NCBI GenBank assembly: GCA_001662655.1
Contig: KV460210.1
Source of the DNA: Pseudogymnoascus verrucosus
Lineage: Eukaryota
Direction: 5' to 3' (one strand)
Length of the DNA: 64,000 bases
Shown: piece by piece, positions 990 to 26,297 of the stretch
How the letters are laid out: each line of letters starts with the position of its first letter
How positions within the stretch are numbered: the first letter of the stretch is position 1
The notes under the pieces: model-generated
Database searches by the model: none
Seen by the model: only the letters and a program-made list of their open reading frames with translations
What the model was told of the DNA's origin: nothing
Translations under genes and position numbers: made by a program

Positions 990-1858
990 TTATAAGTTTG
1001 AACTTTCTATAATAAAGCTAGGGCAAATCATATTCTCGTTGATGTGATCCGCATTTGGCAAATCATTTTCCTCCGCACGCAGGGCTGCCGCTTCTGTGGT
1101 TGTTTCTATGCCTGCCTCGAGATGACGCTTGACCAGTCTATCCATTGCGGTTTCACGTGAAATAGAAACAAACCAGCTGCATATGGTGTTAGCATGGCCC
1201 AAATCGGTTGGTTGGCTACGGGGTGAGAAGAATGGGGATACGGACGATTCGTCGACTAAATGCTGGATTTGATCCCACGGATGCTCGTTTAAGAGAAGGT
1301 AGTTTCCCTCTAGAATCACGATTCGTTGTGATGAGGGAATGTAGATGTCGTTCTCGATCGGATCTTTGACGGCGTGGTCGAAGCTGGGTGCGTGGAAGGA
1401 TTGAGCGGGGTCGTCCACTTCTGTGACTGGATTCTCTCGCAGGGCCTTCACTAGCTCCACAAAGGCTTCGCCATCAAATGTGAAGGGGGCTCCTCGCCGT
1501 CGGAACGCGCACTCAGGGTCTTGAAACGTTCTAAGGGTGGATTTGGGGTAATGGAACCCATCCTGTGTGTTTTGTACATGGTTAGTGGGTGTCGTGACTG
1601 AAGGAAGGAAACAGTTCTATAAATGACCTGCGACGGAAAATATATGAGAAGAGTTGGACGTACCATGGGAAGAACAGTTATACTGGAATTGGGAGTACAT
1701 TTCGCATTCCATATTTTGGTTAAAGCAGCTGATATCGTCGTCTTCCCAGACCCGGGAGTTCCGGCAAAAGCTACCAGAATTCGTCGATGTGATGAGGCAG
1801 GATTCTTTTCTAGGAGCACTCTTAACCTCTCGCATAATGTGGTAATAGTTTCGTCCAT
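990..1858 (-). CDS. P-loop kinase of the PRK/uridine-kinase/PanK fold, YFH7/YggC/FrcK-like; exons 1858-1664, 1562-1246, 1176-990
   Basis: Walker A GTPGSGKTT; PM|DGFH restored by GT-AG intron 1563-1663; RRGAPFTFD, PSFDHAVKDP, ILEGNYLLL, RLVKRHL..G and END.PNA motifs. Confidence 0.85.
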
Positions 1859-2099
1859 ATTTGTTTTAGCAAGGATAGATGTCGTCGAAAAAAAGGTCGG
1901 TCGCTCTATTATCAGGGGAAGATCAACTAGAATATTGCACCATACTCTGGTACCCCCAACTAATATACAATCTCTTCACGTAGTGGATACAGAAAATGGC
2001 CTCAATAGTTATCGTTTTGATATTGGAGGCAGTTTTATTTGTAGCAACACCAAGAAACTCCACTTGGGTCGCTGTCGCCATTAGCCGCCTATGATTGGT

Positions 2100-2116
2100 C
2101 GGAAAACAGTCTCCCG
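2100..2116. promoter_or_regulatory. Gal4-type UAS CGG-N11-CCG (CGGAAAACAGTCTCCCG)
   Basis: Exact CGG-N11-CCG spacing in the divergent kinase/transporter promoter. Confidence 0.65.
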
Positions 2117-2218
2117 CCACCAACAGCGACGGATGTCGTCGCTAACTAGACTAATCAAGAAACCAGCGACAATCACTTCCGCATACTATATAGCACCTTG
2201 GTTTGTCAATATGATTCC

Positions 2219-2235
2219 CGGACAACAGTCGCCCG
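2219..2235. promoter_or_regulatory. Gal4-type UAS CGG-N11-CCG (CGGACAACAGTCGCCCG)
   Basis: Second exact site; 15 of 17 bases identical to the first. Confidence 0.65.
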
Positions 2236-2475
2236 ATCCACAGAATGTTAAGCCGCAAACGTGACACGAAGGCGTGGTTATGGGGTCTGCATCTCCCCGC
2301 AGTACCCAGCGACGGTTGATGGCGGGGAAAAGGTGGGCACCAAAGTTTTCTCCCAGTGTATAAAGTGTGGAGAAATTCCCTTCAATCTATCGCATCTTGA
2401 TGATCATCACCAATATCTTGCCTGCACTCTGGGTTTACAAACTCTCTCTGGGTATAGACTTTTAATACGCAGAAG

Positions 2476-4396
2476 ATGGAGAATACTGAGCAACTTTCCA
2501 GCCATGAATTGGCAGTCGAGCCTCCGCAGAAGAAGGGGTTCACTCTTCTCTTTGAGAACCCATACCTTTTCGGAGTTGCCTTGGTAGGCCACCGCACCCA
2601 AAAAAGAATTCAAAATTACTTGGCTAACGAGTCGATATGATAGTTCTCGTCACTGGGAGGCTTCCTCTTCGGTTACGACCAAGGTGTTGTCTCCGGTGTT
2701 TTAACTATGGAATCATTCGGGGCAGCATTTCCACGTGTATTCATGGACAGCGGCTTTAAGGGGTGGTTTGTTTCCACCATCCTGCTCAGTAAGTGACTTA
2801 AATTATTATGGCGTCTCATGACCAGCGTCTCCCAATAGTCAGTGCGAAATGCTCATATAAATCTAGCTGCTTGGTTTGGCTCCCTTGCCAATGGTTTGAT
2901 TGCGGACCGTCTCGGAAGAAAACTCGATATCATGGTTGCTGTAGTTATTTTTGTAGCAGGCTCTGCGATCCAGGCAGGCGCCGTCAATGTCCCAATGCTA
3001 TTCGCAGGCCGGGCAATTGCCGGTCTCGCCGTAGGGATGCTAACAATGGTTGTCCCTCTTTACATTTCGGAAGTCTCGCTTCCTAATATCAGAGGTGGCC
3101 TTGTCGTTCTCCAGCAGCTTTCGGTCACCATTGGTATCTTGTTCAGCTTCTGGATCGACTACGGCACTCACTATATCGGAGGCGTCCGCTGCGCTCCAGA
3201 CATTCCATATTCCGGAGGCACTTCGGCCAACCCTACCTTCGATGCTTACAACGATGTCGGTCCCGATGGCTGCACGGGCCAGTCAGATGCATCATGGAGA
3301 ATCCCTCTCAGCCTGCAGATCCTCCCTGCCTTCATCTTAGGTATTGGAATGCTTTTCTACCCCGACTCTCCCCGCTGGCTCTTGATGCAAGACCGCGAGG
3401 AGGAGGGGATAGCCACTCTCGCTCGCCTTCGCCGCAAGCCCGCTGATCACCCATCCGTTATCGCTGAGTCCTTGGAGATCAAAGCAACCATCCTGCTTGA
3501 AAACACCTACATCCGCGAAAACTATGCCGGTCTTTCTGGCCTACGCCTCGATGCCGCACAGTACATATCAATGGTAACGAAATTTGCCCGATTCAAGCGC
3601 CTCGCCATCGGCTGCTGTGTCATGTTCTTCCAGCAGTTCATGGGCTGCAACGCAATGATATACTACTCGCCGACTATGTTCAAATCATTGGGACTCGATG
3701 GCAACACGACTTCTCTCCTCGCCACAGGCGTGTACGGCATCGTCAACTGTCTGTCCACACTCCCCGCCCTCTTCTTCATCGATCGCGTTGGCCGCAGGCC
3801 TCTGCTTATGTGCGGCGCGGCTGGCACATTCATCTCGCTTGTGATCGTTGGTTCGATTGTCGGTGCCTATGGTGAAGGCCTCTCTGAGAATAAGGCTGCC
3901 GGGTGGGTAGGAATCGCGTTCATCTACGTAAGTCAACATCCTGTCCCTTACAAAGTGAGGGAGAGAATCTAACATCACACCACCGTAGATCTACGATATC
4001 AACTTCTCATACTCGTTCGCCCCAATCGGCTGGGTCCTTCCGTCCGAGATCTACCCACTCTCCATTCGCTCCAAGGCAATTTCTATCACCACCTCTTGTA
4101 CCTGGATGTCGAATTTTATTATCGGCCTTGTGACCCCAGACATGCTAACCACCATAACCTGGGGGACGTACATCTTCTTCGCTGCCTTCTGTTTACTCGC
4201 CTTCGCCTTCACCTACTTCTTCATCCCTGAGACACGCGGAAAGACTCTCGAAGATATGGATTTGGTGTTCGGTGACACTGAAGCACACGAGGAGAAGGAG
4301 AGGATCCGGGGGATCGAAGCGCAGCTTCGGGGCGTGCATATTGACGGGACGGAAAATGAGAAGGATGCGGCGATGGCGGAACATAGAGAGGTATAA
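2476..4396 (+). CDS. MFS sugar porter (hexose/polyol/quinate-permease-like); introns about 2584-2643, 2789-2867, 3928-3988
   Basis: GGFLFGYDQG, DRLGRK, PLYISE, PDSPRWL, FFQQFMG.N...YY, DRVGRR, WVLPSEIYP and PETRGKTLEDMD motifs across spliced exons. Confidence 0.9.
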
Positions 4397-4473
4397 CTCA
4401 ACCTTGCCATGATGGATAATATATCGTGATTCCGTGTTTAGATGACTGTCTTTTGAGATCAACGATATGATGA

Positions 4474-6867
4474 TTATGTGTCTCCTGGCGGAAGCGGCAT
4501 TAGGCTCCCCGGTTGCAATCCAAAGCTGCTCCAGTCTAGAAAGTCCATCCCATCCCCGTATTCGCCTACGAACATGGAATGGACATCGTCAAAGAGGCCT
4601 GGGTCTTGCAGCATGGCCTCGGGTTGCTCAGCATCGAAGAGCATTGCGCAGAAGCGGTTGATGACTTCAAGACAACGACCCGCTAGCTGATTGGTAATTG
4701 CGGCGTACGAGAGGAGATCTTTAGTGACGCGAAGGTCGTCGAGCCAGGATGGTGCCGAGGGTGACGTGGATGTAGTGATCAAGAAGATAATTGGAATTAG
4801 TCCAGCCTGGAAGAGGAAGTAGCTATAATGCACAAGTCAATAACTGTCACGTTATATACGGCAGAAGCGAATGAGCAGGTATAACTGACAGCATGTACCA
4901 ACTACCTAGCCTCGACGGAATGTTTGTTGTCATATATTGCGATATGCTCGCGATTGTCTCCCTCGCGCTCTGGAGGCACAATTGCCTACACTGTGCCTCT
5001 TCCGGATCTTCAGCGTCGGAAATATCTTGAGCAGTCCAGCGTCTTGCCGCCCAACGTAAGACGATTGGGCGAAAAAGAATGATGCGTAGATTTGCAGCGC
5101 GCCATGTCAGGCGATATCTAGCTAAGATTAAAGCGTCGTGTTGGTGTACATCAGGGTTATCAAGTTGAAAATAAGGAGGGATTGAAGCCTCCCAGTCGTC
5201 GATAGGCTGCTGGAGACTGAGTAGTTCGTGTGCAACTGGCGGGGGGTTGGATATTAGCCGGTGATAGACTGGGTTTGTAGCTTGGTGGAGCTTAGATTGC
5301 ACGATGAGGCTCGAGTAGACTGTAGGTGAGTCAATCTCATCTGGCAGGGAAGTGGTAGTTGGAGTTAGATGCTAGGTTGTTATGTTAGTCGGGTTTCTTG
5401 CCTTGGTATCAGAAGATATATAGCTTACCTCTTCATGGATATTCAGAACTTGATTGGCATCCATGATACTGATTTCAGGTAAAAGCACCGGGCGTCCGAA
5501 GGTAATCGACGCCCCGGAGTCAAAGATGTAAACCCCCCACCAAACACGTCTTCTCATCTCGCGTTCTAAATCACTTATCTTCCATCCAGGGAACTCTTTA
5601 TGTAGGCCAAGACTCAATGCCATCCTCACAGCAAGGCCTAGATAGTTCCAACCGGTATTAGGTTTGTTGCGTTTTTGGGTATAATTGCTCAACAAGAGAA
5701 GGGCCTGCACAAGCGCTAAGTTGCCGACTTCAAAGACAGAAGTGTCTTGCGAGTGCCTGTTCACTGCATGGTAAAATGTGTCGTCCAGTGTGGAATCTTC
5801 CTCACCAATACTCCAAGCCCCCAGAGCAAGGACTGTATTGAGGAGTATCGGCCAGGTTTCACCTCTAGGCCGCGGGGACTGACCCCCATATTGAGCTCTA
5901 AACGTTTGTTCATGGAGGAAGGGATATGTTGTGTGATAATACCGGAAATAGGCGTCAATGAAGAAATTCTCCGAGTATCCAGGTAGGGGTGCTGTAGGTC
6001 CTGGGAATGTGGCAGTGACAATGGCAGAGTTATTCATCGGCACCTGGTTCAAGGATTCGAGCCCTAAATCACCAACCAACAAGGCACGTAGAGGCATCAC
6101 ACTCGATGTAGAGCCTTTCATAGGTTAGTATATTAACAGGGGACTTTTTTACACGGGTTGAAAACACTCACCGAGATATCCTGTGCCCTCTGGTTTCATC
6201 GATAAGGCCGCCATGCCATCTGAGAGACTGCTGAATGTGGTTTCTTCCACCCAGTCGAAGCCGTCTGGCTTCTGAGGCAAAGATTCCTCGGCCCCTGGGG
6301 ATGCACTGTCTCTTAGACTGGCACGACCTGCGGACATTCCGCCCCCTGGCCTTGACACTGGTGCCGGATTTCGCTGAGGCGGTGCATGGTGGGTTCCATT
6401 CTCCGTTGGGCTTAGGATTTCATCGATATTAGCGTCGGGTAACAATTCTGAGAAGGCTTCTTCAAGTCTTCGTATCCTGTCTTCAGCAGCCGTGAGATTC
6501 CTACATATAAAGTAGTGAGTAATAGCCCACGTCTAAGATATAACAAAAGCAAACAAGTATCTAGCTAAATGGCATGGAGTAATCGAAACGGTCATCTTAC
6601 TGTCGCGTTAAAGGGGTTCGCTCAGCTCTTGGGCTGTATGTGCATTCTTTGCCCTGCTGGGAACAGACAGCGCATGAAGGCCGCTCTTTTGAACACTGCA
6701 TTATGTTACTATCAAACCATACTCATTTGGAGTGAGAGAGATACTTTGAATTTCCTTGCTCTACATTCATCACACTGGAATACCTGCGTCAGCACGAGAC
6801 CTTAGGAACGAGGTAGCCAGGGCGTCATTACCGCCGCAAAATTAGCTAAAGAAGCTTGAGGAGGCAT
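4474..6867 (-). CDS. Gal4/Lac9-like Zn2Cys6 transcription factor with Fungal_trans domain (multi-exon; start codon tentative)
   Basis: Small exons at about 6775-6600 splice to CDECRARKFK|CSKERPSCAVCSQQGKECTYSPRAERTPLTR|QNLTAAEDRIRRLEE. Also FDWVEE..SDGMAAL..GYLG, middle-homology region LAVRMALSLGLHKE..RRRVWW..FGRP and an acidic C-terminus. Confidence 0.88.
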
Positions 6868-8097
6868 TTCCTATGCCTTTTTTCATCGCCCTGTCGATTA
6901 TTATATAATTTCCATTTCAAGTACGAGTAGGATGGTAATCAGTGTATAGTTGAAGCTACAACGAGAATCAGAAAGAAATCCGCAGGCGACTTGCTCACGT
7001 GCCGCCTAAAAGTCTGTACAGGGACCGTGCGTTCTTGCAAGCAACTGCGTACAATGCAATTCCTCCTACTTGATTAAATTTTAAATAGTATATCCCTATG
7101 ATTGAAAATAAGAACATGCATTACTATGTCTACAGTCTATAATGCTAGTAATTTATTTTAACACCATCGTTGGGAGAAATTGTTGAAATTGTCGTCGCTG
7201 ATAATGACTGAAAACATGGTCCTTGTTCTGTACAGACTTTCCCGCGGCACGGGTATCGTGATTAATAAGCTAAAGTGTGGAGTGTGGGGAAAGGCGGCTT
7301 CTGGCACGAACAAAGGGGGACTACCCCTCCTTTTAGACCATCTCCTCTGTAGCTCTACTACAATGTATAATGATAGGTTCAAGCAAGTTGGCGAACTCGA
7401 AATTTTGAAATGTACGGTTAAGCTCCGAAAATTTTCACTGAACTTCGAAGAGTAGGCTGTTAGCTTTCCGACTTTGGCACATGAACCAAAAAAATAATCT
7501 ATGACGTCTCCCACTGTGATAGCTAACCGCATATATTTACTACGGATCTTCGGAGTTTCATCGAAAATGTTCATCTCTCAATGGTAACCCCACTATCACC
7601 ATCGAGACTAATATCTTGTGGGACACTCGCTTTGAACTATCATTCTTATCCAAGGCCATTTCCTACAACACGGAGAAGATCCCAGATCGCCCAGCTTTCC
7701 CAAGATCTTTAGACACTAGCTAGCTACCTAAGTTAATGCGGCTCTCGGATTTAAGAGTGAACGGTAACAGCGGAACTTTAACTGTGGTTCACTAAATCCG
7801 AGACTCTCTCTGTGGCGCGGAGTTAATTGGACTTTAGATTCACGTCTATTACTACCGTTTATTAGTGCCGGTAAAGAATCTTGGTGCATTGCTCACTTCG
7901 ATGCTTTGATTTCATAATATTGACGTAAACCTCGGAGCGCCATGTGGCGCGCTGCCCTTCGAATATAAAAGTAGTGAAGGGCCCCTTTCACTTTAGGAAA
8001 TAAGAAACTTGTTTATTTGAGCATTTGAAGGCATTCAACTCTACGATAGCCCATCTAGTCCATTACACAGCACCCGCCTGATCCAATCCCCAGCAAT

Positions 8098-9258
8098 ATG
8101 TCCGACTTGTGGAAACCCGCCCCGGAGCCGGAGACTGAGCTCGGTCGGTATCGTATCCTGTCTCCCACGGCGGGTATCCGCGTCTCGCCCCTCCAGCTCG
8201 GAGCCATGTCGATCGGCGATTCCTGGTCCAGTTTCATGGGAAGCATGGACAAGAACGCCTCTTTCAAACTGCTTGACGCTTTCGCTGAAGCCGGTGGCAA
8301 CTTCATCGACACGGCTTGCAACTATCAGAATGAGCAATCCGAGGCTTGGATCGGCGAGTGGATGACAGCTAGGAAAAACCGGGACCAGATGGTCATCGCG
8401 ACTAAATACACAACGGATTACAAGTCCCATGCGCTCGGGAAGGGACATGCTCCAAACCACTGCGGGAACCACAAGCGGAGTCTACACATGAGCGTGAGAG
8501 ATTCGTTGAAGAAGTTACAGACGGATTGGATTGATATCTTGTACCTGCACTGGTGGGACCACACCACCTCGATTGAGGAAATCATGGACAGCCTGCACAT
8601 CTTAGTTCAACAAGGCAAGGTGCTATACCTCGGTGTTTCCGACACTCCTGCGTGGATAGTTAGCGCAGCGAACACCTACGCCAAAGCGCATGGGAAGACA
8701 CCGTTTAGCATCTACCAGGGAAGATGGAACGTTTTAATCCGTGACTTTGAGAGAGAAATTATCCCAATGGCGCGACATTTTGGTATGGCTCTCGCACCGT
8801 GGGACGCCATGGGGGGTGGGAAGCTCCAGACAAAGAAGGCACTCGAAGAGCGCAAGAAGGCAGGAGAGGGACTGAGGAGCTTGCTTGGCAGCGGCGAACA
8901 AACCGAGGAGGAGGTGAAGATGAGTGAGGCACTGGCGAAAGTAGCAGCAGAGCACGGGATTGAATCCGTTACAGCCATTGCGCTCGCGTACGTCATGTCC
9001 AAAGCGCCATACGTGTTCCCTTTGGTTGGCGGGAGGAAGGTTGAGCATCTGAAGGATAACATTCAGGCACTCAAGATCCGGTTGACACCGGAACAGATTG
9101 CATACCTTGAAAGTATAAAGCCATTTGAAGTTGGCTTCCCACATAACTTTCTTGGCGAAGACCCGCATGTCACAGGTAAGACTTCAGGGCTTCTTGCAGG
9201 CAATGCCAGTTTGAGTTGGGTTAGGTCGCCTGCGGCTATTGGGGCTGAGGGAAAGTGA
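8098..9258 (+). CDS. Aryl-alcohol dehydrogenase / norsolorinic-acid-reductase-like aldo-keto reductase
   Basis: [43 protein letters not shown] and [14 protein letters not shown] motifs; intronless; TATAAAA near 7964. Confidence 0.92.
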
Positions 9259-24782: not shown

Positions 24783-25775
24783 TCAATGCAAATCAAAAGG
24801 AATGTCTAAAATTTTCCCCGTAGGATTAACCAGAGCGTTCATAATATTCTCGAAGATGGCCTCCTGGGAGTTCTGATGGCCCTTGGGGCCCACAGATGAC
24901 CTTGAGGGAGACCATGACGATAGTGCCAAGTGGGCGTCCGGAAACCGCGTAGATAAAATGTTCAAAAGAGCGTCGCTCGAATCCTCAATATCCATTAAAC
25001 ACATCCCATTAGGGCTCGTGGCTATCAGGACGAAGCTCGATTTCCAGGGCTGGATGGTGTAGAAGATCTCCTTTGGCCTTGGCTTTGGCACTGCCACTCG
25101 GCTGGGCAATCCCGAGGCCACGGAGTAGAGGTCATCGATCAGATCGGTTTCATTCATACCCACAGCTCTGGATTGAGGCCTAATAGGCGACATGTGGCTG
25201 GATACCGAGCCCTTGGCAGCTGGGCCTTCTGGGACTGATGGGAGCTGATGTAGCACGGGCGTCGCAGGGCCTTCACTGGCGGTTTTACTCGCCAGATACC
25301 CAAGGGATGGTGTTTCTGAAGCAATCGACCGTGGCGACTTCAATTCAGCGTTTCCATCCTTCGCCAAGCCCTCGGCGTAAACCCGTGGTGTGACACCTGT
25401 AATCTTCTTGAAGACCCGATGGAAGTGGCTCTTCGTCAACCCGGCTTCTTCAGCCAGGTTTGCAAGCGACGGGATGGAGCCCTTCTCAGCCTGGATCTTC
25501 TCGATTGTGTGCCGCGCTCTGGCCACGAGGGTAGCTTGTGGGTCGTGCTTGTCAAGATCCGGTTTGCACCGCTTGCAGGCCCGAAACCCGGCCTCTTGTG
25601 CAGCAGAGGCGTCGTCTTGGAAGACCACGTTTGCTCGGCGCGCGAGTCGAGCACCACATGTCGGGCGACAATATATTCCCGTCGTCCTAACGCAATACAC
25701 GAAGCTGCCGTCGGCCAGGGGATCATGTGCTTCCAGAGCAGCCCAACGAGAGGACTCGGTCAGATAAGAGGCCAT
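24783..25775 (-). CDS. ada: Ada-like methylphosphotriester alkyltransferase/regulator (Ada Zn domain, AraC HTH, residual N-subdomain of the AGT fold); intronless
   Basis: RW.....DP.ADG.FVYCVRTTGIYCRPTC...NV.F.....A..AGFRACKRC (four Zn cysteines); HTH LANLAEEAGLTKSHFHRVFKKITGVTP. Confidence 0.9.
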   Translation of the reverse strand: MASYLTESSRWAALEAHDPLADGSFVYCVRTTGIYCRPTCGARLARRANVVFQDDASAAQEAGFRACKRCKPDLDKHDPQATLVARARHTIEKIQAEKGSIPSLANLAEEAGLTKSHFHRVFKKITGVTPRVYAEGLAKDGNAELKSPRSIASETPSLGYLASKTASEGPATPVLHQLPSVPEGPAAKGSVSSHMSPIRPQSRAVGMNETDLIDDLYSVASGLPSRVAVPKPRPKEIFYTIQPWKSSFVLIATSPNGMCLMDIEDSSDALLNILSTRFPDAHLALSSWSPSRSSVGPKGHQNSQEAIFENIMNALVNPTGKILDIPFDLH

Positions 25776-26297
25776 CGCAACGATTGAAGTCCAATCAGTC
25801 TTTTTCCTGCGCGTCTAGGGCGGTAATACAAGAAAATATAATTAATGTTCAGCTCATGGCCTGCGGGGTAAGCAGTGGACGGACGCTGCAAGATGACACT
25901 TTTTGCGCAGGATCCGTGACAGGTCAAATGTCACTGGGATAGCTCAACAGGTGTCCTCAGTTCGCAGAGTTTATGCAGGTTCCTTCAAACAGTTCATACA
26001 CCGAATATCAGGGCCCACATGCGATGAACAGTCAGAGAAACAGATCGAATGTTTCATCCCGACTTCGCTGTGGAAGAGCGAAAGAAGAAATATGTATGAG
26101 TGATGAAGAGTTTGATTGTGCTTGAGCATATGCAGCATGAAGCAGCATGGAACCAGAGAGATTATGTTGAACCAAGATGAACCAACAGTAGTAGTGCGTA
26201 TGGTGTGGTATATTAGAGATGAGTCACGTGCTACAGGGGCCAATGATACTCGGGATCCTACCGTGGTACTAGAGGTAGTATAGCGTAGTATACGCGT

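Follow-up and report, generated by a model that had tools for sequence, protein, structure and literature searches.

The locus described here lies within a window of 64,000 nucleotides of Pseudogymnoascus verrucosus (assembly GCA_001662655.1, contig KV460210.1), which is the whole stretch of DNA that was analysed, and all positions are counted from its first base. Between positions 990 and 6867 a P-loop kinase gene and a sugar porter gene diverge from a shared promoter, and a gene for a Zn2Cys6 transcription factor, by homology an orthologue of Gal4 and Lac9, adjoins the porter. Two sites of the Gal4 type (CGG-N11-CCG) stand in the shared promoter and recur in the promoters of homologous genes at other loci, and our data suggest that the porter and the kinase are probably under the direct control of the neighbouring factor. 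The features of the locus are as follows.

990-1858, minus strand: YFH7/PRK-family P-loop kinase gene (coding exons 1664-1858, 1246-1562 and 990-1176; 231 aa)
1859-2475, no strand: divergent kinase/porter promoter, 617 bp between both start codons
2100-2116, plus strand: Gal4-type site 1, CGGAAAACAGTCTCCCG, 242 bp to the kinase ATG and 360 bp to the porter ATG
2219-2235, plus strand: Gal4-type site 2, CGGACAACAGTCGCCCG, 241 bp 5' of the porter ATG
2359-2365, plus strand: TATAAAG, read from the sequence as a presumed TATA-like element for the porter, 63 bp before the RNA contig start
2476-4396, plus strand: sugar porter gene (major facilitator superfamily, MFS; Sugar_tr) with exons 2476-2583, 2644-2788, 2867-3927 and 3989-4396; 573 aa
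4474-6867, minus strand: Zn2Cys6 transcription factor gene, Gal4/Lac9/Cra1 orthologue, with seven exons (6832-6867, 6745-6774, 6601-6695, 6172-6500, 5429-6114, 4890-5371 and 4474-4822); 668 aa

An RNA run of a relative (run X12) shows both the kinase and the porter to be transcribed and spliced, and in its contigs porter introns 1 and 2 are precisely skipped. The porter mRNA contig of this run starts at 2428, and another contig passes from 1246 into the exon-3 match of the kinase, confirming the 69-base intron 1177-1245; the other kinase intron (1563-1663) has support from alignment A1. In the factor gene the acceptor of exon 2 was shifted by 9 bases, to 6774, on the basis that the orthologues read ...FACDECR... 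at this point. The three products are 99% (kinase; P0001), 99% (porter; P0241) and 86% (factor; P0123) identical to other Pseudogymnoascus proteins. A first-pass annotation, made from the letters alone, had placed two CGG-N11-CCG sites in a divergent promoter of roughly 620 bp in a filamentous fungus, which agrees with the measured 617 bp, with the two 17-mers at 2100-2116 and 2219-2235 (15 of 17 positions identical) and with the host being a species of Pseudogymnoascus.

The spliced factor has the cysteine pattern C-X2-C-X6-C-X6-C-X2-C-X6-C and carries the Pfam domains Zn_clus and Fungal_trans, with Zn_clus scoring 22.3 bits on exon 3 (cut-off 21) and 34.5 bits on P0123. Gal4_dimer (PF03902, cut-off 22) reaches 18.9 bits on exon 4 alone, 20.0 bits on P0123 and 18.9-20.9 across the clade, and its cut-off is exceeded in the factor of metagenome locus L003 (31.3 bits; see below) and in Sugiyamaella GAL4 (38.3 bits). 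When the 31 residues of exon 3 were compared with 177,635 PDB sequences, only Gal4 (1d66, E 2.5e-7; also 3coq, 7uik and 1aw6) and Lac9 (1cld, E 1.6e-5) were significant, and no other zinc-cluster structure matched in this search up to E 10. The exon aligns without gaps through the linker with residues 21-51 of Gal4 and 22-52 of Lac9. Within it YSPRAERTPLTR, which the first-pass annotation had called a Gal4-like linker, pairs gap-free with YSPKTKRSPLTR, residues 40-51 of Gal4, and has the form Y-S-P-x3-R-[ST]-P-L-T-R at the length seen in Gal4; both this length and R-[ST]-PLTR are kept in the factor orthologues from A. niger to Lipomyces.

The likeness extends well beyond the DNA-binding domain. 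The factor is 44% identical to Sugiyamaella lignohabitans GAL4 (XP_018737608.1) over residues 12-616 of 668, P0123 is 41% identical to the same protein nearly end to end (E 9e-179), and the A. niger protein An11g09590, for which our literature search found no paper naming the gene, is 52% identical to the factor over nearly its whole length. The middle region shares 60-75% identity with proteins of Leotiomycetes, Eurotiomycetes and Sordariomycetes and 52-59% with those of early-branching yeasts, and many of these relatives are labelled GAL4 or LAC9-like by their sources. Judged by domains, PDB matches and orthology, the factor is thus a true Gal4/Lac9-type protein, as had been proposed, beyond a generic zinc-cluster protein; on sequence evidence it is the counterpart in Pezizomycotina of Gal4 and Lac9, an orthologue known as Cra1 in Komagataella, and it very likely acts like Gal4 at DNA.

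The two promoter sites share more with Gal4 sites than the terminal triplets. The inner bases CGGA-N2-ACAGTC are common to both and to the standard synthetic yeast Gal4 17-mer CGGAGGACAGTCCTCCG (used as 3xUAS, three copies of the upstream activating sequence), which bears out their earlier assignment to the Gal4 type, and the motif CGGA[AC]NAC[AT] is present in only 2 of the 11 CGG-N11-CCG matches of the window, namely these two sites. One of the other matches, at 4495-4511, was rejected as a site; it lies inside the factor coding sequence and is without the inner motif. The sequence around the two sites (2085-2245) is also alike beyond the 17-mer, with TATGATT before each and CCAC at most 4 bases after, which suggests that one site is a local duplication of the other. 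The ATGATT that the first-pass annotation had seen before each site is there, at 2091-2096 (3 bases before site 1) and 2211-2216 (2 bases before site 2). It was rejected as a second conserved element, as it is not found beside the sites of the four metagenome loci described next (L001, L003, L009 and L018), and looks like part of the local site duplication.

Conservation of the sites in homologous kinase and porter promoters, which had been named earlier as a check, was followed in metagenome contigs. Of 23 loci retrieved by a scan with an aligned set of 20 kinase relatives, 4 have a Gal4-family factor adjoining the kinase, and the motif recurs in all of these four. Their gene orders differ:

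L003: porter pointing left, kinase pointing right, factor pointing left
L009: factor, kinase and porter in this order on the same strand
L018: factor followed by kinase
L001: kinase, three dehydrogenases, sugar porter, factor

Two full CGG-N11-CCG sites stand in the porter-kinase divergent promoter of L003, one 5' of the kinase and one 5' of the porter in L009 (with two more near-sites 5' of the porter), and one 5' of the kinase in L018, while L001 has the near-site CGGACCACAGTCGCCCT about 170 bp 5' of the kinase, which is identical to window site 2 at 15 of 17 positions and ends in CCT. Taken together, the five promoters (2,345 bp) contain 7 full sites against 0.48 expected, a number reached by none of 20,000 dinucleotide shuffles; with the window promoter excluded, 5 full sites remain in 1,728 bp (0.39 expected), and again none of 20,000 shuffles reached 5, the maximum being 4. 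Outside these promoters the density is 23 sites in 115 kb. No variation occurs among ten aligned sites in CGGA, in AC at positions 7-8 or in C at position 15, and the oriented consensus CGGAC-N-AC-W-GT resembles the synthetic Gal4 site.

These counts bear on the possibility that both sites are chance or duplicated sequence without function. Consistent with it are the extended shared flank (TATGATT), with its hint of local duplication, and the number of bare CGG-N11-CCG matches in the 64-kb window, where 11 were found against 14.15 +/- 3.41 expected and 81 of 100 shuffles gave at least 11. The bare pattern is not enriched in the window, which tells against control by the neighbouring factor as well, and the case for that control therefore rests on the bases beyond CGG/CCG and on conservation. 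On both counts an origin by chance or idle duplication appears very improbable indeed, since four further loci, differing in gene order, carry the motif in homologous promoters, not one of the 20,000 shuffles matches its count, and the inner positions are invariant across ten sites.

The linkage of the three genes is likewise conserved. In eight species the locus tags or accessions of the factor and the porter are consecutive:

Aspergillus fumigatus (EAL92894/5), A. niger (EHA19999/20000), A. vadensis, A. tubingensis and A. fumigatiaffinis
Penicillium soppii, Emergomyces africanus and Rasamsonia emersonii

The kinase and the factor lie on a contig of equal size in seven assemblies of Leotiomycetes and Sordariomycetes:

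Xylogone, Scytalidium (tags g6188 and g6190), Bisporella, Phlyctema, Diplogelasinospora, Emericellopsis and Xylariaceae sp.

The kinase (IFR05_001204) and the porter (IFR05_001205) are neighbours in Cadophora sp. M221. The factor and its candidate targets have stayed linked through rearrangements in several classes of filamentous ascomycetes.

The porter matches Sugar_tr with exon 3 (E 5.2e-79) and exon 4 (E 1.3e-26), and its counterpart P0241, at 99% identity, does so with E 8.8e-121 and scores 391 bits with TIGR00879 (cut-off 238); by these matches it is a standard sugar porter (MFS; Transporter Classification 2.A.1.1). It is unusually conserved, with 70-75% identity to Aspergillus and Penicillium proteins, including 74% to P0394 of A. 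niger, which from gene order is taken to be An11g09600. An11g09590 and this neighbouring porter, encoded under consecutive accessions, are thus a pair orthologous to the factor and the porter of the window (52% and 74% identity). The available part of one study describes An11g09600 as a putative pentose transporter, and the portion of its supplement at hand gives low expression (34-128) on glucose, fructose, sucrose and maltose, high expression on galacturonate (about 1,240), beech xylan (965-1,317) and xylose (694-736), and expression that persists in xlnR and araR deletion strains (PMC5968117).

The latter pattern is broad, and looks more like release from glucose repression than like induction by one sugar; with the lack of enrichment of the bare pattern given above, it belongs to a group of observations that weigh against direct control of the porter and the kinase by the neighbouring factor. 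In Aspergillus section Nigri the gene order is factor, porter, OTU thioesterase (GFN17333, GFN17334, GFN17335), and since the Aspergillus cluster has no kinase, with the thioesterase following the porter, the three-gene form is not universal. Three of the ten aligned sites are without the final CCG. The promoter limits were drawn after the tblastn gene hits were known, and the kinase promoters of L009 and L018, being homologous to each other, contribute their sites as a single event. By tblastn the L003 factor is nearest to Sordariomycete Gal4-like proteins and the L018 factor is equally distant from every Gal4-family query, and in the factors of L001 and L009 the linker is shorter by one residue and the cluster differs in sequence; on such comparisons those of L001, L009 and L018 look like members of a sister subfamily and not strict orthologues. 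Within the genus, a contig of a relative (run X15) compared over 1200-3000 differs by 89 substitutions and by 11 gap positions that fall into six listed indels, none of the six in or between the two sites, with the differences from this run listed to position 1787 only; runs X16 and X18 cover 1604-1971.

It is a side observation on the L009 (7267, plus strand) and L001 (14589, minus strand) factors that the distance from the last cysteine to TPLTR is one residue shorter, yet the sites of these loci keep the 11-base spacing. The existence of this second Gal4-related subfamily, whose loci (L001, L009) bear the same motif, together with the many zinc-cluster factors that fungal genomes are known to encode, would also suit a different account, in which the sites are regulatory but are read by another zinc-cluster protein of 11-bp spacing and the adjacency of the Gal4 orthologue is mere synteny. 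We consider this improbable, because the factor has stayed linked to the porter or the kinase despite rearrangement in several classes, the sites agree with the Gal4 17-mer in their inner bases, and the DNA-binding domain of the factor resembles only Gal4 and Lac9 among solved structures. Direct control by the neighbouring factor is the reading we regard as probable.

The kinase had been described as an orphan, a term that does not hold for its family and stands only as to its substrate. Exon 1 contains a Walker A motif (GSGKT loop), and the closest PDB matches are 2ga8 (yeast 39.9 kDa protein, E 1.3e-20), which we take to be yeast Yfh7, and the bacterial 3c8u, named 'Fructokinase' (E 1.9e-7). 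P0001, 99% identical to the kinase, passes the Pfam PRK cut-off (25.9 bits against 22), placing it in the YFH7 / PRK-uridine kinase P-loop family. The fold family is thus common to the window kinase, to yeast Yfh7 (2ga8/2gaa) and to 3c8u (NCBIfam PRK09270 group), although the window protein has 231 aa and the yeast chain 359. Scores with the NCBIfam equivalog models are all far below their cut-offs (udk 35 bits against 220, panK 37 against 235, PRK09270 group 155 against 227), a match to NF006743 (E 1.6e-45) also falls below its cut-off, and the names given by the sources to relatives of the kinase conflict (nicotinamide riboside, pantothenate, uridine and ribulose-phosphate kinase). We know of no substrate established for Yfh7, for the 3c8u-type kinases or for the window kinase.

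Gene context also bears on the substrate class. In bacteria, relatives of the kinase sit among sugar or polyol genes: in two bacterial-looking loci (L011:1-3218 and L012:3-2704) the kinase relative follows a gene of the mannitol-dehydrogenase family and a PfkB sugar kinase gene, and in L013 and L016 it follows genes for a sugar-binding protein or an ABC transporter. The fungal cluster of L001 (5123-14652) contains, in order, the kinase, a short-chain dehydrogenase, a zinc alcohol dehydrogenase, a second short-chain dehydrogenase, a sugar porter and the Gal4-related factor, and looks like a polyol pathway. The bacterial and L001 contexts point to polyols or ketoses as the substrate class, and 'sugar or polyol', the label used earlier, is still a fair description. 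In four eukaryote-like loci (L005, L006, L008 and L010) the kinase relative adjoins a gene with amino-acid-kinase and GNAT acetyltransferase domains, and there, unlike in the fungal context, no sugar gene is near it.

Under direct control by the neighbouring factor, the protein would bind both 17-bp CGG-N11-CCG sites as a coiled-coil homodimer and, bound in the 617-bp divergent promoter, would drive both the porter and the YFH7-family kinase, which together would take up and phosphorylate a sugar or polyol as one unit. The analysis itself establishes the gene models, the protein families, the sites with their recurrence and the linkage, while we infer binding, dimerisation, the sign of regulation, the inducer and the substrate. 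The first-pass annotation had gone further and proposed a self-contained regulon. In such a pathway-specific arrangement the factor would have no targets but the porter and the kinase, would respond to one sugar or polyol and would play no part in central carbon metabolism. Such a regulon would be in keeping with the physical linkage of the factor and its targets in many species, with the presence of only two full-motif sites in 64 kb, both in this promoter, with the polyol-like setting of L001, where a related factor and the kinase lie beside dehydrogenases and a sugar porter, and with the position of the bacterial kinase relatives behind mannitol-dehydrogenase and PfkB genes (L011, L012) or sugar ABC transporter genes (L013, L016). 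It is nevertheless possible but on the unlikely side, as the available text of two studies has the orthologues of C. albicans, K. phaffii and S. lignohabitans acting, at many promoters, on glycolysis and glucose uptake (PMC2749448; PMC6249229), and as the conservation of the factor (60-75% identity of the middle region across classes) is unusual for a pathway-specific regulator. On balance, we consider further targets elsewhere in the genome, for example glycolytic genes as in yeasts, likelier than their absence. The earlier interpretation therefore stands in part, with the Gal4-type factor, its sites and their conservation upheld, and the orphan status of the kinase family not.

Gal4 is the textbook eukaryotic activator and an example of regulatory rewiring, serving galactose use in Saccharomyces and glycolysis in Candida and Komagataella. 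The Pseudogymnoascus factor resembles S. cerevisiae Gal4 and K. lactis Lac9 in its Zn2Cys6 cluster, in the 13 residues from the last cysteine to the end of PLTR and, with Gal4_dimer scores just below the cut-off, in a putative coiled-coil region, and the CGG-N11-CCG sites of its locus are of the type known from them, with similar inner bases. The layout is also reminiscent of GAL1-GAL10, a divergent pair with UASG sites between the two genes, in that multiple sites occupy a promoter common to two divergent genes, one of which encodes a kinase. The yeast GAL4 gene is not known to lie beside its targets, whereas the factor gene here adjoins its proposed ones, and these are a sugar porter and a P-loop kinase, in contrast to the GHMP galactokinase of the GAL regulon. 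The earlier remark that Leloir genes are missing from the window is in line with our scan, in which the cluster and 44 of the 81 long frames beyond 6900 yielded no domain of the Leloir enzymes galactokinase, transferase and epimerase, so that the factor does not belong to a GAL regulon at this locus. A Gal80- or Gal3-like gene was likewise not seen in the window.

The closer comparison is with the generalist Gal4 orthologues of other yeasts. As far as the accessible parts of the two studies go, C. albicans Gal4 binds CGG(N11)CCG, the site also read by ScGal4, in chromatin immunoprecipitation and acts on glycolytic and pyruvate dehydrogenase (PDH) genes (PMC2749448), and K. phaffii Cra1 and Sugiyamaella GAL4 act on glycolysis and glucose uptake and not on galactose, with overexpression of S. 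lignohabitans GAL4 (Ata et al.) raising glucose uptake 1.3-fold (PMC6249229). The authors of the latter, in the text available, prefer the view that Gal4 went from generalist to specialist (PMC6249229), and both studies, in the portions at hand, concern Saccharomycotina only (PMC6249229; PMC2749448). The window factor is homologous to these proteins over its full length, and a porter target fits a role in sugar uptake. The accessible text of both papers gives glycolytic and PDH sites, with no mention there of a linked porter-kinase pair (PMC6249229; PMC2749448), and no glycolytic gene is present in this window. Our literature search, with most subscription journals outside it, found no description of Gal4-orthologue targets in filamentous fungi. 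The kind of system is known, but both the set of targets and its linkage with the factor appear to be new.

Other genes surround the cluster. The first 741 positions of the window (plus strand) encode the C-terminal 246 aa of a second sugar porter (Sugar_tr, E 2.6e-34), which runs off the left window end and is convergent with the kinase gene; further cluster genes may lie to the left of the window. An aldo-keto reductase gene (8059-9255, plus strand; E 3.8e-81) begins 1.2 kb past the factor start codon, and the interval from that codon to this gene (6868-8058) contains no CGG-N11-CCG and no half-motif through which the factor could regulate itself. At 24786-25814 (minus strand) a frame in this fungal genome carries a bacterial-type Ada zinc-binding domain (E 5.1e-31) together with an AraC-type helix-turn-helix.

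The recurrence of the sites in distant fungi suggests an old Gal4 target set that had not been described. A conserved Gal4-type site before genes that travel with the factor supplies concrete candidates for direct targets and makes the ancestral role of Gal4 testable. For the orphan P-loop kinase family of Yfh7, the association further provides a tie with the uptake of sugars or polyols, in fungi as well as in bacteria, and so narrows the panel of substrates to be considered. We tentatively propose, as an idea that is rather less than likely, that the porter and the YFH7-family kinase represent the ancestral linked target set of Gal4, older than its glycolytic and galactose wiring, in which the kinase would carry out the opening step of a sugar or polyol phosphorylation route not yet described, or would serve as a Gal1/Gal3-like ligand sensor for the factor. 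If this were true, a kinase family with a solved crystal structure but without a substrate would gain its first function.

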